The notes under the pieces: generated by a model
Told to the model about the DNA's origin: nothing
The model's database searches: none
Seen by the model: only the letters and a program-made list of their open reading frames with translations
Assembly (NCBI GenBank): GCA_005191425.1
Contig: SUPR01000047.1
Span: 1-25,675, forward strand
Origin: Candidatus Helarchaeota ASGARD archaeon Hel_GB_B
GTDB taxonomy: Archaea > Asgardarchaeota > Lokiarchaeia > Helarchaeales > HEL-GB-B
Direction: 5' to 3'
DNA: 25,675 nt
In this document: one piece after another, positions 529-17,029 of the stretch
Layout: each line of letters opens with the position of its first letter
How positions within the stretch are numbered: position 1 is the first letter of the stretch
Position numbers and translations under genes: made by a program

Positions 529-1959
529 TCAACTTATTTTATTTAATAAAGCCTTAATACTATTTTCAATTAAATTAATCCTGTATTTACTTGTCATAGT
601 TTTTAAAATTTGGTTTCTTATGAACTTAGGGTTTGATAAAAATTTTGCATATGCATTCACCATTATTTTTTCCAATATTTCTTCCCCAAGGACATTAGGT
701 AAAACTTCAAAGACTCTAATATACTTTTTCCAATCGCGTTCTCTTGAAACAATGTTTTTTTTCTCGAGTTCCTTCCATAAATCTGAACCCATTAGTATGT
801 ATAAATATTGATATTGAATAAAAGTTAAATCTAATTTCATACTAAATTTTATTGTATTATTAATTTCATCTAAAGTTTCTCCAGGACCACCGAGGATAAA
901 TAATCCAATAATATTTTCGATTCTTGCTTTATGCGCATTTTTTATAGCTTGTTGTGATATTTCTGGTGTGATCCTCTTATTATAATAATTTAACATTCTT
1001 TTATTAGCACTTTCAATTCCAAATAATACTGATTTACAGTTTGATTTTTCCATTGTCCTTAGTAATTGTATGTTTGCTTGGTCAACTCTACCTTCACAGC
1101 CCCATGAAAAGTCGAACTTTTCTTTTTGCATCATTAAGCATAAGTCGACTGTTCTTTTTTGGTTTAAGACAAAACAATCATCAACAAAACTTATTTCTTC
1201 ATATCCACAATCTTCTAAATATTTTAATTCATCAATAACATTTTTTAAAGACCTTACCCGTAAAACTCCTTTTAAACCTGAATTTATATGAATTCCACAG
1301 AACTTGCAATTAAAGGGACAGCCTCGAGAAGTGGCTAGTATGGTAAATTTTTTTCCACTCATTGTATAGTTATAATCAATAAGATTTCTATCAGGGAACG
1401 GAATTTCATCAAGGTCTTTAATGGGTTTTGCATTAGGTGTCATCTTTATTTTATTATCTTTTCTGAAAGTAATCCCCCGGACATTTTCAAGTTCGTCTAA
1501 TTTATTTTTTTCAATAACATCTATTAAATTTGGTAAAGGTTTTTCGGCTTCGCCTCTAACGCAATAGTCTACAAAAGGGTAGTCCTTTAAAATCAGGTCG
1601 GAACATAAAGTTGCTAAAATATTTCCAACAATTAAATTTATGTTAGGATTCCAATTTTTAATTAATTTTGCAATTTCCATTGAAATATTAAAAGAGGGGG
1701 AAAGAGGCGATAGACCTACAATGTTTGGATCGAATTTCTTTATAGATTCTAATATTTGAGCTGGACTAGCACCAGTGACATCTTGATCTAAAATTTTTAC
1801 ATTATGACCTTCACGGGATAAAATTTCACCTAAATATAATAGACCTAGCGGTGGATAAGTATTTTGCCTTTTTACGATTTTATTATTCCTATTTTCTATT
1901 TCTACTGTTGGTGAAGGGTTGATTAAGATAATCTTCAGTATTAAAACACCTATTTTCAA
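529..1959 (-). CDS. Cobalamin-binding radical SAM protein (class B methyltransferase-like), paralogue 1
   Basis: N-terminal B12-binding domain (PPLGLLYL, VDYCVRGEAE), SRGCPFNCKFC (CxxxCxxC), FVDDCF, LFGIES. ORF-track start is TTG 1959; CTG 1938 is a better-supported start (see findings). Confidence 0.9.
   Translation of the reverse strand: MKIGVLILKIILINPSPTVEIENRNNKIVKRQNTYPPLGLLYLGEILSREGHNVKILDQDVTGASPAQILESIKKFDPNIVGLSPLSPSFNISMEIAKLIKNWNPNINLIVGNILATLCSDLILKDYPFVDYCVRGEAEKPLPNLIDVIEKNKLDELENVRGITFRKDNKIKMTPNAKPIKDLDEIPFPDRNLIDYNYTMSGKKFTILATSRGCPFNCKFCGIHINSGLKGVLRVRSLKNVIDELKYLEDCGYEEISFVDDCFVLNQKRTVDLCLMMQKEKFDFSWGCEGRVDQANIQLLRTMEKSNCKSVLFGIESANKRMLNYYNKRITPEISQQAIKNAHKARIENIIGLFILGGPGETLDEINNTIKFSMKLDLTFIQYQYLYILMGSDLWKELEKKNIVSRERDWKKYIRVFEVLPNVLGEEILEKIMVNAYAKFLSNPKFIRNQILKTMTSKYRINLIENSIKALLNKIS
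1947..1951 (-). promoter_or_regulatory. Candidate Shine-Dalgarno AGGTG, 8 nt upstream of CTG 1938
   Basis: Minus strand reads ata-GGTG-ttttaata-CTG AAG ATT ATC TTA ATC AAC; matches the archaeal SD consensus (GGAGGTGA). Confidence 0.45.
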
Positions 1960-2494: not shown

Positions 2495-3970
2495 ATGAAA
2501 ATACTATTAATCAATCCCAGTTCTAAGATTTTTGATTCATATATTGACCGGACAGATTATTATAATAAGAAGCATTTATTTACTGCATCAATGCCACCAA
2601 TGGGCTTATTATATTTGGATGCAATTCTAGATGATTCTGGATATAAAACAATGATTATTGACCATTCAGCAACTGGAATTTCGTTAAATTCAATGTTAAA
2701 GAAAATTAAGAATTTTGACCCAGAAATAATCGGTATATCAGTTTTATCTAATTCATCGCAGACATCTAATAAAATTGCGAGAAGTATTAAAAAATTGAAT
2801 CCAAATATTAAAATTGTTTATGGAAATTGTCATGCAACGATATGGGGAAAAAGGATACTTAAAAATTATCCTTTTGTTGATTATTGTGTAAAGGGAGAGG
2901 GCGAATATACTTTTTTAAAATTACTTGATGCAATTGAACACAATAAATCAATGGAAAATATTGATGGCTTGGTATATCGAAATAATGGTCATATTGTAGA
3001 AAATAAGGATGCTCCACTTATCGAGGAACTTGATAAATTGCCATTTCCTAATAGGGAAAAATTAAATATTGAATATTCATGGGATTTTGGGGGCTTCAAA
3101 TTTGCGCAAGGGAGATTTTCAACAATTCTATCATCGCGTGGATGCCCTTTTAAGTGTATTTATTGTATGAATAGTTTATTAGCCAGACATAAATGGCGGT
3201 CAAGGTCTATTGAAAATATAATTGAAGAGTTATTATTATTAGAAGAAATGAAGTACAAAGAAATATTTTTTTTGGACGATAATTTTACATTAAAAAGAAA
3301 TAGAGTAATTGAGATAAACGAGAGAATTAAAAAAGAAAAAATTGATATTGTATTTTCAGCTAGAGGAAGAGTTGATCAAAATAGCGGAAATATGTTCAAA
3401 TCTATGGTAGAAAAAGGTAATTTCAAATATATCTCTTTTGGGGTGGAAAGTGGCTCACAAAAGATTCTTGATTATTATAATAAAATGATTACTCCACAAC
3501 AAGCATATGATACGCTAAAGTTAGCGAGAAAGGCGGGGTTTGATTTTATCATGGCAAATTTTATGGTTGGAGCCCCTTATGAATCCTTAAGCGATATATA
3601 CCAGACCTTAAAATTTGTCTTAACTGCAGATATAAGCTGGCCTGTAATTACAATTGTACAAGCTGTTCCAGGGACTAAAATGTGGGTTGATCTTCAGAAA
3701 ATAAAATCATTAAACATAGATAAATATTGGGAAACTGGAGTCCCTGTAATTGACCTGAATATTAATGGTTATACGAGAGAAATTCTAAATAAATTAATAA
3801 TAGAAACATATTCCCGATTTACATCATTTAGAAGATTTAAGTTCTTATTCAATGAATTTCTTACATCTTTAAAAAGTTCATACAAATTAAAAAAGGTGAT
3901 TAACCTTCTTAGAAATTTAAATTTACTTAAAGGTATTTATTCAGAAATTGCTGATGGTATGAGCGCTTAA
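2495..3970 (+). CDS. Cobalamin-binding radical SAM protein, paralogue 2
   Basis: MKILLINP start, PPMGLLYL, YGNCHAT, VDYCVKGEGE, SRGCPFKCIYC, FLDDNFT, FGVESGS. Confidence 0.92.
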   Translation: MKILLINPSSKIFDSYIDRTDYYNKKHLFTASMPPMGLLYLDAILDDSGYKTMIIDHSATGISLNSMLKKIKNFDPEIIGISVLSNSSQTSNKIARSIKKLNPNIKIVYGNCHATIWGKRILKNYPFVDYCVKGEGEYTFLKLLDAIEHNKSMENIDGLVYRNNGHIVENKDAPLIEELDKLPFPNREKLNIEYSWDFGGFKFAQGRFSTILSSRGCPFKCIYCMNSLLARHKWRSRSIENIIEELLLLEEMKYKEIFFLDDNFTLKRNRVIEINERIKKEKIDIVFSARGRVDQNSGNMFKSMVEKGNFKYISFGVESGSQKILDYYNKMITPQQAYDTLKLARKAGFDFIMANFMVGAPYESLSDIYQTLKFVLTADISWPVITIVQAVPGTKMWVDLQKIKSLNIDKYWETGVPVIDLNINGYTREILNKLIIETYSRFTSFRRFKFLFNEFLTSLKSSYKLKKVINLLRNLNLLKGIYSEIADGMSA

Positions 3971-3995: not shown

Positions 3996-4211
3996 TTAAT
4001 CTTCTGGAATCAACATCCTAAAGATACCTGCCATTCCACCAAAAGTGAGCATTTTTACTGTATCGTCTCGCCCATACTCTCTAAAAGAATATTTAATACG
4101 TTCTTTCAAGATCTTTGAAATTGCAATTATTCCAATTGATATTATCGGAAATAAGAATAATTCTAAAAGAGTAAATATAAAAAACGAAATTTTTCTTTTT
4201 ATGTGAGTCAT
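3996..4211 (-). CDS. Small membrane protein A (71 aa), paralogue of 7249..7494
   Basis: ATG start, hydrophobic residues ~8-32, fills the gap between two genes, 23/71 ungapped identity with the 81-aa ORF at 7249. Confidence 0.8.
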   Translation of the reverse strand: MTHIKRKISFFIFTLLELFLFPIISIGIIAISKILKERIKYSFREYGRDDTVKMLTFGGMAGIFRMLIPED

Positions 4212-4232
4212 TAATAGAATTATTTAATAGAT

Positions 4233-4244
4233 ACTTAAATAAGT
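4233..4244. promoter_or_regulatory. Candidate bidirectional TATA-like/operator element ACTTAAATAAGT
   Basis: Dyad ACTTA-AA-TAAGT centred in the 57-bp gap between divergent starts 4211(-) and 4269/4275(+), about 27 and 30-36 nt from them. Confidence 0.35.
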
Positions 4245-4268
4245 TATCATCAATTAAATCATTAATGA

Positions 4269-5693
4269 GTGCTTATGAAAATCTTATTACTCCACCCAGG
4301 TATTCATTATTTCCGCGAAGGGAATAAATTAATAGTGAAAAAAAAGACAGTCATTACAGACCATACATTACCGCTGGGTATTTTATATATTGCAGAAGTT
4401 TTAAAAAGAAATAACATTGAAATAGAAGTTTTTGATCATGCGGTAATCAATTTATCAGTTGATAAATTAGTAAAATGGATTATAAAAAATGATTTTGACC
4501 TTGTTGGATTATCTGTAATGGGTGGGTCTTTTATAACAGCCATTGAAATTTCTAAACGTCTTAAAAAATTAAACCCAAACATTATAATAGTATTTGGCGG
4601 AGTTCAGTCTACACTCTGTCATGATAGAATAATGGAAAAGTATAACCAGGAAGTAGATTATTGTGTTCGTGGTGAAGGAGAATATACATTTTTAGAATTA
4701 ATTGAAGCGCTTAGGAAAAATAAAGAGATAAAAGACGTCCGTGGAATAACTTATTACGAACATGGTATTGTAAAATTTACTGAAGATAGGCCCGAGTTAA
4801 AAAATCTTGATGATTTACCAATTCCTGATAGGTCAATCCTTACAAAAAAGTTTAGATATTTACTTGGGGGAAAAGTAAGTCCGTTAATATCATCTCGCGG
4901 CTGTATTTATAATTGCAGGTTCTGTTCGTGCGGAGTTTTGTATAAACGTCGGTTAAGATTCAGGAGCGTAGAAAATGTAATTAAGGAATTAATATATTTA
5001 GAAAATGAAGGGTTTAAGGAAATAAATATAGTTGATGATTGTTTTACAATCAATGTAAAAAGAGTTCATAAAATATGCGAGCAAATTAAAAAAGAGAAAT
5101 TAGATCTTAAATGGCACTGCCTCTGTAGGACCAATATTGGTGATTATAATATGTACAGACATATGGCTACTGCAGGGTGTGCTACTGTATCTCTGGGTAT
5201 CGAAAGTGCAAATCAACGAATTCTCGACTATTATGATAAAAAATCAACTGTCGAGAATGCAAAAATAAGTGTGAAAAATGCTAATAAAGCAAGAATACCA
5301 AATGTTTATGGAGGATTTATAATAGGAGCGCCAGGTGAGACGGTTCAAGAAGTTTTAAACACAATTAAATTTGGTCTTAAATTAAATTTGTCCTTTATGC
5401 AATTTCAGTTATTAAATGTTTTACCCAAAACTCAAATTTTTGATGAATTTGTCCGTAAAGGTTGGTTAGATCCATCACAAACATGGGAACAGCCAGTTAT
5501 TGCAGCAGATGTTTGTCCAACAGCTGTCCCTAAAAAAATTCTTGAAAAAATTGTTGAAGTAGCGTATATACACTTTGTCGGAGATTCAAAAAGAATTATT
5601 AAAGAATATCTCCGGTCAATGAGAGCAGAATATCGATTTCAGATATTTAAGAATATACCCGAGCAATTGAAAAAAGTATTAAGTAAATATTAA
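4269..5693 (+). CDS. Cobalamin-binding radical SAM protein, paralogue 3
   Basis: LPLGILYIA, VDYCVRGEGE, SRGCIYNCRFC, IVDDCFT, LGIESAN. ATG 4275 (MKILLLHP) matches the start of paralogue 2. Confidence 0.92.
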   Translation: MLMKILLLHPGIHYFREGNKLIVKKKTVITDHTLPLGILYIAEVLKRNNIEIEVFDHAVINLSVDKLVKWIIKNDFDLVGLSVMGGSFITAIEISKRLKKLNPNIIIVFGGVQSTLCHDRIMEKYNQEVDYCVRGEGEYTFLELIEALRKNKEIKDVRGITYYEHGIVKFTEDRPELKNLDDLPIPDRSILTKKFRYLLGGKVSPLISSRGCIYNCRFCSCGVLYKRRLRFRSVENVIKELIYLENEGFKEINIVDDCFTINVKRVHKICEQIKKEKLDLKWHCLCRTNIGDYNMYRHMATAGCATVSLGIESANQRILDYYDKKSTVENAKISVKNANKARIPNVYGGFIIGAPGETVQEVLNTIKFGLKLNLSFMQFQLLNVLPKTQIFDEFVRKGWLDPSQTWEQPVIAADVCPTAVPKKILEKIVEVAYIHFVGDSKRIIKEYLRSMRAEYRFQIFKNIPEQLKKVLSKY

Positions 5694-5705
5694 TGTGATT
5701 TTTTA

Positions 5706-7235
5706 ATGACAGGCTTACGAATTTTAGGTATGTCTTTTTCAAAATTAATTAACAAAATACTTTATTCATATAAAGATCCATTATTAATACAGAGAAAAAT
5801 TTTAACAAACATAATAAAGGTAAACAAAAACACTTTATTTGGAAAAATTCACAAATTTAGCCAAATTAAGTCAATTAAAGATTTTCAGTCCCATTGTCCC
5901 ATTTACACTTATTCTGACATTGAACCATATATTAAAAAAATGTTAAATGGTGAAAAAAATGTACTAATTGGGAGTAAACAAATTTATTGGGGGAAAACTG
6001 CGGGTACTTCTGGAACTCAAAAATTTATACCAATAACAAGAAAAAGTATATTTAATGCATCTAAATGCTCTTTACGTATAATTTTATCATATATTTCTGA
6101 AAATACTAAAGAGAATTCAAAAATTCTTGATGGTATTATGTATCTATATTCATCCGATCCATATTTGGGGGAAATAAATGGTCTGCCTGTTGGTTTTGGA
6201 ACGGGTGCATTTGATCAATCATCCTCAACAGGTTTTTTAAGATTTTTAAAATTAAATCTGTATTCTAATTCCAAGTTTTACAATATTAAAAACTTTGATA
6301 TAAGGACAAACATGATGGTACAAGATTGTTGTAAATTAAATATAACATCTTTTTTTGGAGTAACTTCAATATTAATCAATTTTATGGAGACGATACTACA
6401 AAAAGCGCCAGATCTTGGAATTCAAGCCGATAAGTTAATAGATATTTTTCCCAATTATAAATTTTCAATTATGGGTGGAGAACCGCTACAGTTTTATAGA
6501 AACAGATTAAGACATGTTGTGGGTTCTGAAGTTGACTGTAGAGAATTATATGGTGCAACCGAAGAGATTATTGCTGCCCAGTTTGGAAGTAAGTCTAGTT
6601 TGACTCCTATGTTGGACGCAAACTTTTTTGAATTTGTTCCAGTTGATAATCCCGAAGAAAGATTACTTATAAATGAAATTAATAAACACAAAGAATATTT
6701 TATAATTATTACAAATTATAATGGATTATATTCATATAATTTAGGTGATATTATTGAATTTGTTTCTACTACACCGCCTTTATTGATCTTTAAAAGAAGA
6801 AAAGACACAATTAATTTGGCTTCAGAAAAAATAACTTTAGATCAACTTTATCGTAGTATTAGAAATGCAAATCAAAAATTTGGTAGTAAAACAAAGGATT
6901 ATATCATATGTGGTATATTTCACCCCAAACCTCGCTATATATTATTGATTGAATTTTTCCCTAATTCACATCCAACAGATTATAATAAATATTTATTTGA
7001 ATTTAATTCAAATTTAATGAAATATAGTAGCGTATATGCCGATTTAATTAAGGTACAGCATGCTATTTCCCCTCCTATTATGTGGGTTCTTGAAAATGAT
7101 TCGTTCAAAAAATATCAAATTCAAATTTTAAATAATGGACATCCTGCTGGTCAAGCTAAATTTCCTAGAATAACTGTAAAAAAAGAAATTCTTGAATATT
7201 TTTCTAAAAAAATTATTAAAAAAGTAGAGATTTAA
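5706..7235 (+). CDS. GH3-family acyl acid-amido synthetase (adenylate-forming ligase)
   Basis: N-terminal Q..IL..IIK.NKNT.FGK.H.F segment, motif I KTAGTSGTQKFIPIT, motif II LYGATE, FFEFVP, motif III YSYNLGDII, C-terminal GQAKFPR. Confidence 0.88.
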   Translation: MTGLRILGMSFSKLINKILYSYKDPLLIQRKILTNIIKVNKNTLFGKIHKFSQIKSIKDFQSHCPIYTYSDIEPYIKKMLNGEKNVLIGSKQIYWGKTAGTSGTQKFIPITRKSIFNASKCSLRIILSYISENTKENSKILDGIMYLYSSDPYLGEINGLPVGFGTGAFDQSSSTGFLRFLKLNLYSNSKFYNIKNFDIRTNMMVQDCCKLNITSFFGVTSILINFMETILQKAPDLGIQADKLIDIFPNYKFSIMGGEPLQFYRNRLRHVVGSEVDCRELYGATEEIIAAQFGSKSSLTPMLDANFFEFVPVDNPEERLLINEINKHKEYFIIITNYNGLYSYNLGDIIEFVSTTPPLLIFKRRKDTINLASEKITLDQLYRSIRNANQKFGSKTKDYIICGIFHPKPRYILLIEFFPNSHPTDYNKYLFEFNSNLMKYSSVYADLIKVQHAISPPIMWVLENDSFKKYQIQILNNGHPAGQAKFPRITVKKEILEYFSKKIIKKVEI

Positions 7236-7248
7236 GGAAGATTATAAA

Positions 7249-7494
7249 ATGGGCAAATTATCATCTATCGTTTTTAGAATTTTATTATTACTATTAATAT
7301 TATTTTTTTACCCTACAATTTTTATTGGGTCTTTTGCTTTATCTAGACTAATGAATCTACGAATAATACAATTGATGAAAAAATATGGGCGCGAAGATGT
7401 CATTAAAGTATTATTGATGAGTGGTTTCAGTGGATTTATAAGATTATTATTCAGTAACCCCGAAAGATCTGATAGAATTAAGCATAATTCATAA
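7249..7494 (+). CDS. Small membrane protein B (81 aa), paralogue of 3996..4211
   Basis: ATG 13 bp after the GH3 stop, preceded by purine-rich AAGGAAG; hydrophobic residues ~7-31; shares the YGRxD..K.L...G..G..R.L pattern with protein A. Confidence 0.82.
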   Translation: MGKLSSIVFRILLLLLILFFYPTIFIGSFALSRLMNLRIIQLMKKYGREDVIKVLLMSGFSGFIRLLFSNPERSDRIKHNS

Positions 7495-7522: not shown

Positions 7523-8422
7523 TTAAAGCCATTTAATTTTTAATTTTTCTCTTGGAGGGGCTCTGAGAAACCGTATTGCGGGATATCCTATAATTAAAAC
7601 GCCTTGACATACCCTATTGTTTTTTATTCCTATCCATTGTCTTAACTTTGCATCTCTTTTTATTGCTTCTTGAGCGAATCCAATCCAGCATGTTCCTAAT
7701 CCTAAAGACTGTGCTGCTAGCATTCCATGTGTAATTGCAATTCCTGCATTATTACCTTCCATTCCACCATATTTTGGTAAGTCCAAGACAATAATACACG
7801 GCGCATTGTAAAATATTCTATCAATCCCCATTTCATAACTTCTAATCAGGTCATCAACGAACTTTTTTGTTTTAGGATCAGTTAAAAATTTCTTTTTATA
7901 ACCAAAAACAAAAAATCTAAAGATATTTTTAAATTTTAAAATAGTTCTAAAGAAGTAGAAAGATTTCATTATTTGTTTTTGAAAATATTTTATTTTATCA
8001 GGGTCTGTAATAACAGTATAATTCCAATCTTGTAAATTACTGGCACTGGGTGCATATCGCATAGCTTCTAAAATTAATTCAATTTTCTCTTTAGGGACTT
8101 TTTTATTTTGAAATCGTCTGATTGACCTTCTTGACCTTATAAATTTCATTAAATTATTTATATCTATAATTTTAGACGGGTCTTTTATCTCTTCAAATTC
8201 CCATAAATTGTCATCAATTTCCTTGTCCCACATGATGGCATTTCTTGGACATATTGCAATACAGTGCCCACATAAAATACACGCATTAAATTCATCGTCA
8301 AATACTATTTTTGGGCCTTCTTGGTCATTAGTTTCTTCTTTTCTATATAATTTTGAAGGACATTCTTTAATGCACTCTTCGCACCTAATACATTTATTTA
8401 AATCTACGCCAATAATTTTCAT
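7523..8422 (-). CDS. Nitroreductase-family flavoprotein with N-terminal 2x[4Fe-4S] ferredoxin domain
   Basis: CIRCEECIKECP and CILCGHCIAICP; FMN-binding RRSIRRF and APSASNLQ; LAAQSLGLGTCWIG. Confidence 0.92.
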   Translation of the reverse strand: MKIIGVDLNKCIRCEECIKECPSKLYRKEETNDQEGPKIVFDDEFNACILCGHCIAICPRNAIMWDKEIDDNLWEFEEIKDPSKIIDINNLMKFIRSRRSIRRFQNKKVPKEKIELILEAMRYAPSASNLQDWNYTVITDPDKIKYFQKQIMKSFYFFRTILKFKNIFRFFVFGYKKKFLTDPKTKKFVDDLIRSYEMGIDRIFYNAPCIIVLDLPKYGGMEGNNAGIAITHGMLAAQSLGLGTCWIGFAQEAIKRDAKLRQWIGIKNNRVCQGVLIIGYPAIRFLRAPPREKLKIKWL

Positions 8423-8531: not shown

Positions 8532-9716
8532 TTAAGTAAATTTGGATAGAATTTTTCCTATCCAAGTTTTACCTTCACTCCAGTCATTATCGTGTTTACT
8601 GACCCAGAGGAAACATAACCAGCTAATAGTAGACCCCATAAATGCGGTTAATGATGGTACATAGGGTTCTCCAACACCGAAATTGATAGCAAATACAAAT
8701 GCAACTTCAAGGAATGCTGGAATTAACCATACAAATCGCTTCTTTTGTATATAACAGATTATTGCAAGAAAACCGATAAAACCTAAGTGTAAATATAGGT
8801 TTCCTGCTAATCCTAATGGAACATAGAACCATATATCAACAAATTCAATTCCAACAGCGATCAGTCCAGCAGTTAATAGCAATGTAGTATCATTTCTTTT
8901 TTCAGAATTTAAATGTACCCTTTTTAGATATTTATTTTGCCAATCAACTCGCATAAAGATATATGTAGCCACTATTAATATTGAACCAATAACCCATAAG
9001 GCAGGAAATGCAGTTAATCTATTTCTAGAAATTGGATAATCGGTTTGAAATAGTGTTAAAGTCTTTCTTGAACCAACTCCACCATCCCAAGTCTCAATAA
9101 GTCCGCAAGTTAAGTCTAGTTTTGCAATAACTACTTTATTTTTGGATGAGTCATATATAGCTATTTGAAAACTAGCTTGTGCACCTAAAATAGGCCACAG
9201 TTTTTGGGATGAAGGCCACCATACTAGTCTTTTTTCCACAATAGCCGTATAATTACTTCCAGCTGGCCCCATAAACCCTGTGGGGTCGATTACCTTAAAA
9301 ATGGCCCCAGGTTGTATACCAAACCCAGATGTTAATTGTAATAATGGATTTGATACATGTACCCACCAAATTGAATAATTACCCTTCAATTTACCGTTTT
9401 GATAAACAATTCCATTTGGATTTACAAAAAAAGAACCTTGAATTTTATTTCCTATTTTAATTGTAACATTAGAATGAGTTTGATTTATAACAGTTGAAGT
9501 TACTGATAACACTAAATCATTAGTTTGCCCCATTGTCCCATTATTGTAATAAAAATAGGCATATCTATTTGTCTCAAAAAATTTTGGGTCTTCTTGATTT
9601 GGCCCAAAAGGCAATTTTATCATTATTTGGTTGAACAGAAATGCCCCTAACGCAGCTGATAACACCAGAATTAATATTAATAACCTCGTTTTCCAATTTA
9701 ATGACATAATTTTCAT
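8532..9716 (-). CDS. Hypothetical integral membrane protein
   Basis: 394-aa ORF: one N-terminal TM segment, a ~200-aa soluble Gly/Asn/Thr-rich domain, about five C-terminal hydrophobic segments. No family recognised. Confidence 0.75.
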   Translation of the reverse strand: MKIMSLNWKTRLLILILVLSAALGAFLFNQIMIKLPFGPNQEDPKFFETNRYAYFYYNNGTMGQTNDLVLSVTSTVINQTHSNVTIKIGNKIQGSFFVNPNGIVYQNGKLKGNYSIWWVHVSNPLLQLTSGFGIQPGAIFKVIDPTGFMGPAGSNYTAIVEKRLVWWPSSQKLWPILGAQASFQIAIYDSSKNKVVIAKLDLTCGLIETWDGGVGSRKTLTLFQTDYPISRNRLTAFPALWVIGSILIVATYIFMRVDWQNKYLKRVHLNSEKRNDTTLLLTAGLIAVGIEFVDIWFYVPLGLAGNLYLHLGFIGFLAIICYIQKKRFVWLIPAFLEVAFVFAINFGVGEPYVPSLTAFMGSTISWLCFLWVSKHDNDWSEGKTWIGKILSKFT

Positions 9717-12579: not shown

Positions 12580-13758
12580 TTGAAATGGTGGTTTTCTTTG
12601 AATTATTTTGTAGAAAGAACTCTTAAATTTCAAGAAAAAATGAAAAAATCGATGGTCGATTATTCAATTATTTTCAATTCAAGGCATATTTACTATTTTA
12701 CGGGTACAGCTCAACATTCAATTTTATTAATTCCCTCAAACTCCGAACCTATTTTATTCGTAAGACGCGATTTTGATCGAGCTAAAAAAGAATGCGTTAT
12801 AAAAGATTTGGTCCAAATCAAATCAACTAAAGATATTTTTAATGGAATTAAGGATTTCGATAAAAAAGAATTATTAATTGGAATTGAATATAATTTTTTA
12901 CGAGTTGGACAGTTTTTTTCAGTAAAAAAAGAATTGAAAAAATCTAAATTCGTTGATATTTCGAGTACCATTCAAGAATTAAGAATTATTAAAGATGATC
13001 TTGAAAAAAAGCTAATTAGAAATAGCGCAAAAATTAGTGAAAAAGTCCAACAAATTGCAAGAGAATATTTGCGTCCAGGTATTACTGAATTAGAATTAGC
13101 AGGTGAAATTCAAAGAGAAATCACAAAATATGGGAGTATATTTTCTTACTTCGACGGCTATTGGGCAAGAACGCCGTTTATTATAGCTTCTGGAGAGAAT
13201 TTGTGGGCAAGAAGCGACTTTCCCCCAGTTTTATCTGGAGTTGGCCCATGTAATGCTGAACCACACGGACCTTCAAATAGAGTAATTAAATCTGGCGATA
13301 TTGTAGTTGTTGATGTTGCTACTGTAATTGAAGGATATACTGCAGATCATTCACGAACTTATTATGTTGGAAATAAAATATCTGATAAATTTAAAAAGAT
13401 TCATAATATTTTATTAAAAGCGCGACTAAAAGCAATTAATTTTATGCAAGCCGGGAACAGTATTGCAGAATTTTGTAAAATTATATTGAAAAATATTCCT
13501 GTTGAATTTCGGGATTATTTACAAGGATACGACCAATTTAAAGAGGGATTTGGACACGGAATTGGATTATGCCTTGATGAATTGCCTTTTTTGATTTTAA
13601 ATACTAACCAAAAATTCCAAAAAGACATGGTAGTAGCATTTGAACCTAAAATAATAATTCCTGGATGGGGTGCAGTAAATTTTGAAGATGATTTTATTAT
13701 TAATAGAGAAGTCCCACCAGAACAAATAACTAATAGTCCTATTTACTCTTTTTCCTAG
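12580..13758 (+). CDS. M24B Xaa-Pro aminopeptidase/prolidase family peptidase
   Basis: All five metal ligands present: VVVDV, ADHSRT, GHGIG, FEPK, FEDD. TTG 12598 (GGTGG 6 nt upstream) is a likelier start than TTG 12580. Confidence 0.9.
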   Translation: MKWWFSLNYFVERTLKFQEKMKKSMVDYSIIFNSRHIYYFTGTAQHSILLIPSNSEPILFVRRDFDRAKKECVIKDLVQIKSTKDIFNGIKDFDKKELLIGIEYNFLRVGQFFSVKKELKKSKFVDISSTIQELRIIKDDLEKKLIRNSAKISEKVQQIAREYLRPGITELELAGEIQREITKYGSIFSYFDGYWARTPFIIASGENLWARSDFPPVLSGVGPCNAEPHGPSNRVIKSGDIVVVDVATVIEGYTADHSRTYYVGNKISDKFKKIHNILLKARLKAINFMQAGNSIAEFCKIILKNIPVEFRDYLQGYDQFKEGFGHGIGLCLDELPFLILNTNQKFQKDMVVAFEPKIIIPGWGAVNFEDDFIINREVPPEQITNSPIYSFS

Positions 13759-15154
13759 CGAAAATTCTTTTCAAATAAATTGAAACCCGTAGCATAATAT
13801 CTTTTACCATTTTTTCCTCTTCTTTAAATGGCATTAAATAGTTAACGCTATAATCTTGAAATAATTTAATTCTATGACCTGTTTTAATATGAATTCCTAA
13901 AAATTCTTCGGTATCATCTTTTTCATTCTTTAATTTTACAGCATATAGTGGCAAATTACCCGGTTTAACTGAGATATTATTAAGAAAATTTATGGCTTTT
14001 TTAATTTGGTCTATAGAAAGTTTTCTTTGAATATCTGAAGACCCTTCAATATATATTTTAACATCTTCAGAATCCTCCATATATTCCGGAAATCTTTCTA
14101 TAATTGAATCTTTAAGATATAAAAATTTACCAGACATATCATCAATTAGAATAGTTTTTTTAATATCAATTTTCTTTTTAAAAAATAGCCATTTTCTCTT
14201 TTTAATTTCAACTAACCCATTCACAATCCAAATAGGATATTGAATAGTATCAACAGACTCTATTTTCATTTGTGGTGGTAATGTACTTTTAAGGTCGAGT
14301 AATAATGATCTATTTATAGTTTCACCAAATCTATCATAAAGCATGTCAATCCACGACCTTCCTATTAAAAAGCCACCAAAAGTTATTAATCCTAATGCTA
14401 ATACAGTTATTATTAACTTAAAATAATCGAAATTAAATAAAGGAGAATAATAAAGGCCTGCAGATATTCCACAAAATATAAAACCAGTTGTAAAATCATT
14501 TAGTTTTGTATATTTTTTAAGTAATGGAGCAGGAGACTTCCAGAAATCTTCGTGCTCCTCGCGTTGCCCACCTTCTTTTATTTTTTCAATCAATAGACCA
14601 TGTCTAATATCATTCCAATCTCTTCCGATAAAAAATGTACTTAATATATTCCCTCCACCACCAATAGCCAGACAAATTATATGGGAAATAGAAGAAGTCC
14701 AAGGAGTAAAGTATGTGATTATCACAGGAATAAACATTATTATCGAAGAAATTATATATAGTACTAGGCCAATAAATCCTTCATGTAGATGGTATTTCCC
14801 AACGCCACTATCTTCCATACCCATATGAAATCTTGACGAATATTTAGGAAGTATAATTAACAAATATACAAAAAAGAATAACATACCAGCATCAGATATG
14901 ACCTGAAATATTACCTTGATATTGTCTATAATTTCTAAATTTAATGTTATAAAATAAAGAATTGCAGAAACGATCATTATTGAAATTGCCAATTTGCCAA
15001 ATTTTTCAATATTTTTGACTATTATTCCAAAATATATTAAGATAAACATTAAGTAAAAATAAAAAATATCATATAAAAATGGAAAAATTATAGTAATTAC
15101 TAAAAAGCTTAGAAAACCTAAAATTAATGCAAAAATTACCCTTTTTTTATTCAT
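13739..15154 (-). CDS. Hypothetical multi-pass membrane protein with internal duplication and soluble C-terminal domain
   Basis: 471-aa ORF with about seven hydrophobic segments in the first ~270 aa and two IGRxWxD-ending units; 3' end overlaps the convergent M24 gene by 20 bp. Confidence 0.78.
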   Translation of the reverse strand: MNKKRVIFALILGFLSFLVITIIFPFLYDIFYFYLMFILIYFGIIVKNIEKFGKLAISIMIVSAILYFITLNLEIIDNIKVIFQVISDAGMLFFFVYLLIILPKYSSRFHMGMEDSGVGKYHLHEGFIGLVLYIISSIIMFIPVIITYFTPWTSSISHIICLAIGGGGNILSTFFIGRDWNDIRHGLLIEKIKEGGQREEHEDFWKSPAPLLKKYTKLNDFTTGFIFCGISAGLYYSPLFNFDYFKLIITVLALGLITFGGFLIGRSWIDMLYDRFGETINRSLLLDLKSTLPPQMKIESVDTIQYPIWIVNGLVEIKKRKWLFFKKKIDIKKTILIDDMSGKFLYLKDSIIERFPEYMEDSEDVKIYIEGSSDIQRKLSIDQIKKAINFLNNISVKPGNLPLYAVKLKNEKDDTEEFLGIHIKTGHRIKLFQDYSVNYLMPFKEEEKMVKDIMLRVSIYLKRIFARKKSK

Positions 15155-16397: not shown

Positions 16398-16745
16398 TCA
16401 AGTATTTTCCTCCTCTTTTAAGATTTTAAGTAATCTTTCTTTTAGTGATGGGATGTCTTTTGTTGCTGTATCCCAAACAGCATCTAAATCTACTCCAAAA
16501 TATCCATGTATAAGCTTATCTCTCATCCCGGCTATTTGTTTCCATGGTATATCCGAATATTTATTTATGAAATCTGCTGAATAATTCTTAGTAGCTTCGC
16601 CGATTATTTCGATTTCTCTTATTACAGCATCTTGGAGCATATGATTACTTCTAAATTCTTGAAAGTTTTTTCCCTTAAGATAATCTTCTATTAGGCTAAT
16701 CGCGTCAAGAACGTGTTTGAGGAATACCGTATTGTCTTTTTTCAT
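16398..16745 (-). CDS. hepT: HEPN-domain (DUF86, HepT-like) ribonuclease toxin
   Basis: DAVIREIEIIGEA, IPWKQIAGMRDKLIHGYFGVD with the R-x4-H motif; ATGA overlap with the upstream MNT gene. Confidence 0.9.
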   Translation of the reverse strand: MKKDNTVFLKHVLDAISLIEDYLKGKNFQEFRSNHMLQDAVIREIEIIGEATKNYSADFINKYSDIPWKQIAGMRDKLIHGYFGVDLDAVWDTATKDIPSLKERLLKILKEEENT

Positions 16746-17029
16746 CCCAGCACCAGCTTAGACTCTTTTTCAATTCTATCTCTTAAATATGGACTTATAG
16801 ATGCCTCTGTAAGTAAATCAACCTTTATTCCCAACACATCTTCCAATTCCTGCTCTATTCCCACGATCTCAAGTAAACTTTTTCTTTCAGAAAATTCTAC
16901 AATTACATCCAAATCACTTTCTAGGTTTGCTTCTCCTCTAGCGTAGGAGCCGAATATCTTAATTTTCTTGACCCTGTGTTTTTTCAGTATTTCTATTAAT
17001 TTTTTTATTTTTTTATCCATTTGTTTCAC
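16742..17029 (-). CDS. mntA: Minimal nucleotidyltransferase (MntA-like antitoxin)
   Basis: FGSYARGEANLESDLDV (GS-x10-DxD), LEDVLGIKVDL; directly upstream of the HEPN gene. ATG 17020 is an alternative start. Confidence 0.9.
   Translation of the reverse strand: MKQMDKKIKKLIEILKKHRVKKIKIFGSYARGEANLESDLDVIVEFSERKSLLEIVGIEQELEDVLGIKVDLLTEASISPYLRDRIEKESKLVLG

Follow-up and report, generated by a model that had tools for sequence, protein, structure and literature searches.

In Dehalococcoides and other organohalide respirers, a membrane anchor of ∼ 90 residues, RdhB, is encoded adjacent to each cobalamin/Fe-S enzyme RdhA; 32 such paralogous pairs are present in one genome, and there is biochemical evidence that the RdhA/RdhB interaction is pair-specific (PMC6005880). 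The present analysis concerns an arrangement of similar appearance in contig SUPR01000047.1 (assembly GCA_005191425.1) of the archaeon Candidatus Helarchaeota Hel_GB_B, the whole analysed stretch of which, 25,675 nucleotides in length, is referred to here as the window. Two small predicted membrane proteins, termed s1 and s2, are encoded there in a six-gene cluster together with three B12-binding radical S-adenosylmethionine (rSAM) enzymes (r1, r2 and r3) and a GH3-family amide synthetase. The likeness to RdhA/RdhB lies in the provision of one small membrane protein per B12 enzyme and in the duplication of the two as pairs. However, no sequence relation between RdhB and s1 or s2 was detected (no Pfam or NCBIfam match), and RdhB has three predicted membrane helices where the s1/s2 family has one. 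Moreover, RdhA is a reductive dehalogenase that is exported to the outer face of the membrane with a Tat signal, whereas the neighbours of s1 and s2 are radical SAM enzymes without a signal sequence and the conserved part of their partner is predicted to be cytoplasmic. The s1/s2 family therefore falls outside the RdhB-type anchors, and resembles such small membrane anchors of cofactor enzymes in functional and genetic terms only.

In archaea, the tailoring of membrane lipids is mainly the work of B12-dependent radical SAM enzymes. The glycerol dialkyl glycerol tetraether (GDGT) ring synthase GrsA/B, the methylases of GDGT and of glycerol monoalkyl glycerol tetraether (GMGT), and the tetraether desaturase Ted are all archaeal B12-rSAMs that act on membrane lipids (PMC11214058). 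Enzymes of this kind have been described or predicted as peripheral membrane proteins (bioRxiv 10.1101/2025.10.20.683597). They are likened to r1-r3 by description, but in those descriptions they act with no dedicated small membrane subunit and no GH3 partner. For the GH3 enzyme, the closest described system is the GH3-dependent ornithine-lipid pathway of Singulisphaera acidiphila (OlsH/OlsI), in which OlsH makes an amide-linked lipid; archaea are stated to lack amino lipids of this kind (PMC12493201). That pathway also uses a prokaryotic GH3 ligase, and among curated families OlsH is the one that best matches the GH3 enzyme of the window, but the pathway has neither an rSAM nor a small membrane partner. 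Finally, a short open reading frame (ORF) beside a B12-rSAM methyltransferase is characteristic of PoyA/PoyC and ApyA/ApyD, which belong to the ribosomally synthesised and post-translationally modified peptides (RiPPs). The s1/s2 family differs from PoyA and ApyA in having a membrane helix, a conserved helical fold and one ORF per enzyme.

It is proposed here that s1 and s2 are dedicated membrane-tethering or docking subunits of their cognate B12-rSAMs, a reading to which we give about an even chance of being correct. The genes of the cluster are listed below.

3996..4211, minus strand: s1, 71 residues, a single-pass (bitopic) predicted membrane protein of subtype A (translation; family profile E = 7e-25).
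7249..7494, plus strand: s2, 81 residues, a paralogue of s1, of subtype B (translation; family profile E = 2e-23).
529..1959, minus strand: r1, from the ‘partnered’ clade of B12-binding radical SAM enzymes, with a basal place in subclade B/E (Pfam and tree).
2495..3970, plus strand: r2, a B12-binding radical SAM enzyme of a partner-less clade (Pfam and tree).
4269..5693, plus strand: r3, from subclade A/D of the ‘partnered’ clade of B12-binding radical SAM enzymes (PF02310, PF04055 and tree).
5706..7235, plus strand: GH3, a GH3-family ATP-dependent amide (acyl-amido) synthetase (PF03321/PF23571/PF23572).

A small-protein family confined to rSAM and GH3 clusters

The ungapped alignment of s1 and s2 from Met1 that had been counted by hand in the sequence-only reading was reproduced, with 23/71 identities at precisely the positions listed there. 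When the sequences were shuffled with the composition of each segment retained (N-tail, membrane helix, linker and C-terminal part), the mean was 7.6 and the maximum 17 identities in 5000 trials. The local alignment score was 118, as against 32 ± 6.5 for shuffled sequences (z = 13), and BLASTP of s1 against s2 gave E = 7e-12. Orthologous pairs of the small genes have a proportion of synonymous differences (pS) of 0.83-0.88, which is saturated, and a proportion of non-synonymous differences (pN) of just 0.27-0.32, and homologues are retained in at least two Asgard lineages. Because synonymous change is saturated while pN is low, and because homologues have been kept across lineages, these comparisons indicate that s1 and s2 are, as had been supposed from the conservation between the two proteins, selected coding genes rather than chance ORFs in AT-rich DNA.

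A profile of 11 sequences was searched against 1.84 billion representative proteins at a cut-off of E ≤ 0.001. This gave 39 matches, nearly all of them separate proteins with lengths of 60-95 residues; a few longer matches aligned over just 13-30 residues of repeats and were discarded as spurious. Wherever the source names an organism it is an Asgard archaeon (Helarchaeota or Hodarchaeota), and public contigs labelled Hodarchaeota and Helarchaeota carry the family. It is present in four of the seven species genomes of the order, all four of which also have GH3 beside rSAMs of the partnered type, and among 301 sampled genomes of the phylum no convincing member was found except in the genome of the window itself. 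That genome, a 3.5-Mb metagenome-assembled genome that is 94% complete, holds two copies, s1 and s2; a third small gene was looked for around r1 and r2 and throughout the rest of the genome, and none was found. Pfam and NCBIfam scans assigned s1 and s2 to no family, and a PDB profile search returned only unrelated membrane helices at chance level (E ≥ 0.1). A Foldseek search of the small-protein model against the PDB gave no match, and the ESM Atlas gave no usable feature match and, by structure, generic helical look-alikes only. On these searches s1 and s2 represent a rare, unnamed family of single-pass membrane proteins of ∼ 70-85 residues that is known here only from Asgard archaea, and no small membrane partner of a radical SAM enzyme is described in the libraries and literature searched.

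All ORFs of 20 loci were then scanned with profiles for the small family, rSAM and GH3. Some homologues sit on contigs too short for context (< 1.2 kb), and the counts given here cover the members with context. Eleven loci hold 23 small genes, of which 21 are immediate neighbours of a B12-rSAM gene, in many cases across a 2-nt gap or with a 4-nt overlap. The remaining two are s2 and its same-genus orthologue, each of which comes immediately after GH3 and is one gene away from an rSAM. The association with rSAM and GH3 genes that had been suspected from the window is thus borne out: all 23 genes lie inside such clusters, and homologues are not found mostly away from them. The adjacency of rSAM and small gene was seen in downstream co-directional, upstream co-directional and divergent arrangements. 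In the window itself s1 and r3 are divergent, with ∼ 60 bp between them, while r3, GH3 and s2 are separated by gaps of 12-13 nt (s2 starts 13 nt past the GH3 stop codon) and are read as one operon in which s2 is the last gene. The orthologue of s2 in the same-genus genome, G001, occupies the same position, directly after GH3. The TTG start listed for r1 is probably too far upstream, with the true start near residue 8, since the G001 orthologue of r1 (73% identity) begins at the position of residue 8 of the r1 ORF.

GH3 was found in every small-gene locus long enough to judge. The fullest loci (Hel_GB_A contig L017, L028, L042 and the Hodarchaeota contig L025) each have three rSAM genes, three small genes and two copies of GH3. 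The rSAM tandem arrays without GH3, from other Lokiarchaeia (L029, L030 and L032), contain no small gene and have no room for one, and there is likewise no small gene in the GH3 loci without rSAM (L031 and L033-L035, which include modules of GH3 and a hexapeptide transferase). A search for related loci with the GH3 alignment returned three, all of which were already in the set.

This distribution also bears on a different role, in which the small proteins would scaffold or regulate a larger rSAM-GH3 membrane assembly, or present a lipid substrate, for example as GxxG oligomers that recruit GH3. GxxG motifs are typical helix-packing elements, and the presence of the family only where rSAM and GH3 co-occur is what such a role would lead one to expect, as are the apparent co-transcription of s2 and its G001 orthologue directly behind GH3 and the position of the subtype-E small genes, which always sit between rSAM and GH3. 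However, loci carry two to three small genes and one to three GH3 genes with no fixed ratio between them, the GH3 and hexapeptide-transferase modules occur without a small protein, and the small subtype tracks the rSAM clade (below) and not the GH3 copy. A scaffolding or regulatory role, which overlaps with tethering, is on balance considered unlikely.

Pairing of the small proteins with rSAM subclades

Both PF02310 and PF04055 are above threshold in r1, r2 and r3 and the CxxxCxxC motif is visible in the alignment; by these features the three are B12-binding (class B) radical SAM enzymes. Their best NCBIfam matches (HpnJ, PhpK, ApyD and BchE) are all far under the cut-offs, and no hydrophobic or membrane segment was found in any of the rSAMs. 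Maximum-likelihood trees were calculated for 34 rSAMs and for 22 small proteins, the latter from ∼ 80 columns. The rSAMs with a small neighbour are monophyletic (support 100/98) and divide into subclades C, A/D and B/E, each with support of 100/98-100. The tree of the small proteins has the shape ((C),((A,D),(B,E))), with support of 98/96 for C, 81/77 for A + D and 84/87 for B + E, and the subtype of the small protein matches the subclade of the rSAM in every adjacent pair, the exception being one rearranged locus (G006 C488). Since the small-protein tree mirrors that of the partnered rSAMs, the unit that was duplicated, twice, is read from the trees as the enzyme together with its partner, and both have been kept as pairs in Helarchaeota and Hodarchaeota. 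The sequence-only reading had taken duplicated short ORFs beside rSAM enzymes as typical of RiPP loci; this was not carried over, the duplication being one of enzyme-partner pairs and not of precursors for one enzyme.

Within this framework r3 and L021_1392 together form the sister group of the D-partnered rSAMs, as s1 and L021_2907 do of subtype D, while r1 is basal to the E-partnered rSAMs and s2, together with its orthologue, is basal to subtype E. Because they occupy the same relative places in both trees, we infer that the cognate pairs in the window are s1 with r3 and s2 with r1. The third enzyme, r2, falls outside the partnered clade, together with G001_9825, L021_3144 and L041_4323, in a clade that is never accompanied by a partner, and this accounts for the presence of three rSAMs but two small genes in the window. 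Enzymes of the r2 type are present in just those loci that have no subtype-C pair, and in some lineages the r2 type stands in for the subtype-C enzyme and its partner.

The partnered rSAMs all lack a loop of 5-7 residues before CxxxCxxC and have a shorter C-terminus, whereas the r2-type clade and the outgroup arrays keep both the loop and the longer C-terminus. Loop loss and the short C-terminus are taken from the alignment to be a shared derived feature, and may mark a docking site. The arrays of L029, L030 and L032 (genomes G031, G021 and G029, respectively) are tight and in tandem, and consist of three to five paralogous B12-rSAMs of the same broad family.

At the corresponding locus of G001 (contig C114; L016:8866-9820) a deletion of ∼ 0.8-0.9 kb has taken the promoter region between the two divergent genes, together with the 5′ portion of each of the r3 and s1 orthologues. 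An rSAM fragment of 197 residues is left, as is the small protein's C-terminal half; this may be an assembly artefact. The r1 and s2 orthologues of G001 are both intact, and the pattern, although a single event, agrees with the assignment of s1 to r3 and of s2 to r1.

All of the loci come from related Asgard lineages, and shared ancestry must inflate the counts given above. If adjacency were simply inherited synteny, the small proteins could be independent of the enzymes, for example as stress- or ion-related micro-proteins that travel with the cluster. That adjacency outlasts changes of orientation and two duplications as pairs, with retention in both Helarchaeota and Hodarchaeota, makes mere synteny very unlikely. 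In addition, no member was found outside such clusters in the source genome and the 20 loci scanned, and in G001 truncation affects the orthologues of r3 and s1 jointly, whereas those of r1 and s2 are intact.

Predicted fold, topology and role of the small proteins

The architecture read from the sequences alone was a transmembrane helix followed by a basic amphipathic linker, a YGR[DE]D motif and a GxxGxxR segment. An AlphaFold2 model of the small protein, generated with the family alignment, matches this description. The model is all-helical, with a mean predicted local distance difference test (pLDDT) score of 92.3. The first helix (residues 2-46) comprises the membrane helix and runs on into the basic amphipathic stretch, and is followed by helices at residues 48-58 and 60-67, which carry the GxxG motif. 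There is a break at Gly47, inside the YGRDD motif, and Gly59 separates the two short helices. Conservation runs along the whole chain, with only the last ∼ 10 residues, a polybasic tail, being variable. Among 51 members only Ser32 (45/51), Gly47 (45/51) and Gly62 (48/51) are conserved above 88%; position 49 is D, E or N in 48/51, and Arg48 (32/51) and Lys53 (27/51) are weaker. The conservation of Ser32, Gly47 and Gly62 is interpreted as a structural pattern and not as a modification or reactive site.

The mean number of lysine and arginine residues is 1.7 ahead of the membrane helix, 4.1 within the 15 residues that follow it and 3.2 in the variable tail. Given this enrichment after the helix, the positive-inside rule predicts that the N-terminus is outside and that the conserved C-terminal 40 residues are cytoplasmic, on the side of the membrane on which the rSAMs and GH3 are synthesised. 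In the proposed mechanism, the N-terminal helix would span the membrane, with the short N-terminus outside, and all later parts of the chain (the basic amphipathic stretch, the turn at G-R-D, the pair of short GxxG helices and the polybasic tail) would lie on the cytoplasmic face. There they would hold one cognate, otherwise soluble, rSAM at the bilayer, and the tethered enzyme would thereby gain access to a membrane-embedded substrate. This substrate would most likely be an amide-linked (N-acyl-amino-acid-type) or other lipid that is built or modified by the co-clustered GH3 enzyme.

The same one-to-one adjacency, translational coupling and co-diversification would be equally expected if each small protein were the substrate of its enzyme. 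It might be C-methylated by its own B12-rSAM and perhaps acylated or ligated by GH3, as a membrane-anchored RiPP-like or carrier product. The rSAMs do score against the peptide-modifying models ApyD (E = 1e-46) and rSAM_ocin_1 (E = 5e-31), although far under the cut-offs, and the G-R-D/E motif and K/R53 are fairly conserved. However, the sole conserved reactive side-chain is that of Ser32. Unlike PoyA and ApyA, the small family shows no split into leader and core and no hypervariable region, so that the conserved leader or follower and variable core of a RiPP precursor are not seen. The whole chain is confidently helical in the model, whereas the peptide substrates of rSAM enzymes are normally extended. 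A Pfam scan of the rSAMs found B12-binding and Radical_SAM domains only, with no RiPP recognition element (RRE) or PqqD domain, and no protease or exporter is common to the 11 loci (the M24 peptidase of the window has a counterpart in the same-genus genome only); in this, too, the small-gene loci differ from those of PoyA/PoyC and ApyA/ApyD. Three separate enzyme-substrate pairs in one cluster would also be unusual for RiPPs. A substrate role is therefore judged unlikely. In its fullest form, the small proteins would give rise to membrane-anchored, radically modified lipo-peptides of Asgard archaea, through their own B12-rSAM and possibly with the joining of acyl groups or amino acids by GH3. 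Such a product, undescribed so far, seems distinctly unlikely.

The sequence-only reading had considered an accessory subunit and a precursor or carrier to be equally plausible. Its link to rSAM and GH3 enzymes stands, but the equal standing does not, and the evidence favours a tethering subunit. There is one small protein for each clade-specific rSAM and the trees mirror each other; a full-length helical membrane fold is conserved; there is no hypervariable core, with only Ser32 and glycines being conserved; and the rSAMs have no RRE or PqqD domain and their loci no common protease or exporter.

Several points weigh against the tethering proposal. As noted above, its genetic hallmarks are shared by enzyme-substrate pairs. 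The deeper branches of the small-protein tree have 81-87% support from ∼ 80 columns, and s2 and r1 lie 5.3 kb apart in the window, so that it is the tree that pairs them. No fusion of an rSAM to an anchor was found among the 39 profile matches. Partner-free rSAMs exist both in the Lokiarchaeia arrays and, as the r2 clade, in the same cluster; as these related enzymes do without a partner, a tether is not a general requirement. A single co-folding run of r3 (45-row alignment, 43 used) with s1 (34 rows), made without controls, scored 0.20 against a mark of 0.32 and counts neither for nor against binding.

The GH3 enzyme, neighbouring genes and implications

Three Pfam GH3 domains are above threshold in the GH3 protein of the window, the sole curated NCBIfam match of which is OlsH (lyso-ornithine lipid synthetase, NF052613) at 141.5 bits against a cut-off of 620. 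By these scores it is a member of the GH3 family but not an OlsH equivalog, and its nearest relatives outside the Asgard archaea have only 28-30% identity. Genes for a hexapeptide acyltransferase, a PEMT-like membrane methyltransferase and SCP2 are found in sister loci. Together, the GH3 enzyme nearest to OlsH, the lipid-type genes of the sister loci and the parallel with archaeal lipid-modifying rSAMs suggest a lipid substrate, although none of them is decisive.

In one sister locus (L028:13904-17915, Helarchaeota) the rSAM/small/GH3 cluster lies ∼ 2 kb from genes for the alpha and beta subunits of methyl-coenzyme M reductase (MCR), of the alkyl-coenzyme M reductase type. This cluster contains a PEMT-like membrane methyltransferase and is flanked by genes of β-oxidation (acyl-CoA dehydrogenase, 3-hydroxyacyl-CoA dehydrogenase and enoyl-CoA hydratase). 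The proximity to MCR prompted the consideration of an MCR-modifying B12-rSAM (Mmp10 or the glutamine C-methyltransferase), an identity that was rejected, as the match to TIGR04014 reached 82 bits where 360 are required. A second ground is provided by the Hodarchaeota contig L025, which carries the cluster with no MCR genes in the 13 kb fetched.

The source genome also has a second, different GH3 cluster (contig C92 of G000; L031:3790-15748) without a B12-rSAM or small membrane protein. Its genes encode a GH3 enzyme, a 902-residue glycyl-radical (PFL-like) enzyme, an unassigned 327-residue protein, a hexapeptide transferase, a second GH3, a SAM-dependent methyltransferase, a GNAT protein and an ABC-2 exporter. 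A hexapeptide transferase with GH3 is a recurring two-gene module in Lokiarchaeia (L033:6193-11493 in G035, L034 in G012 and L035:24-2398 in G002), and in G035 the module is followed by two 2-hydroxyacyl-CoA dehydratase (HGD-D) subunits in place of rSAMs.

Convergent to s2 in the window is a gene (7523-8422, minus strand) for a fusion of a 2x[4Fe-4S] ferredoxin and a nitroreductase-fold domain with a weak BluB-like match. This gene was dropped as a candidate member because it is absent from the same-genus locus, and it probably does not belong to the core of the cluster; a TPR gene, also absent there, was dropped as well. Two further minus-strand genes (8532-9716 and 13739-15154) encode proteins of 394 and 471 residues without a Pfam or NCBIfam match, and the same-genus genome has ORFs of 391 and 469 residues, with no Pfam match, at corresponding positions beside sulfatase and M24 peptidase genes. 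At 16398-17029 (minus strand) the gene for a 115-residue HepT-like ribonuclease overlaps the end of an upstream 95-residue ORF, in what looks like a putative HepT/MNT-type toxin-antitoxin pair. Elsewhere the window encodes a Ras-family GTPase and archaeal tRNA synthetases, which, taken with the label Candidatus Helarchaeota carried by close homologues, assign it to the Helarchaeales.

If s1 and s2 are indeed tethering subunits, they would provide a concrete answer to the question of how one group of soluble B12-rSAMs reaches substrates that are buried in the bilayer. They would also provide a rule for heterologous reconstitution, namely that the cognate small gene should be co-expressed with its enzyme. 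The small proteins are moreover a compact marker for finding and dissecting an uncharacterised rSAM/GH3 pathway. The cluster, with its three rSAMs, one to three GH3 amide ligases and acyltransferases, has been seen only in Asgard archaea, which of all prokaryotes are the most closely related to eukaryotes, and the enzyme to which its GH3 comes closest is one that produces an amide-linked lipid.

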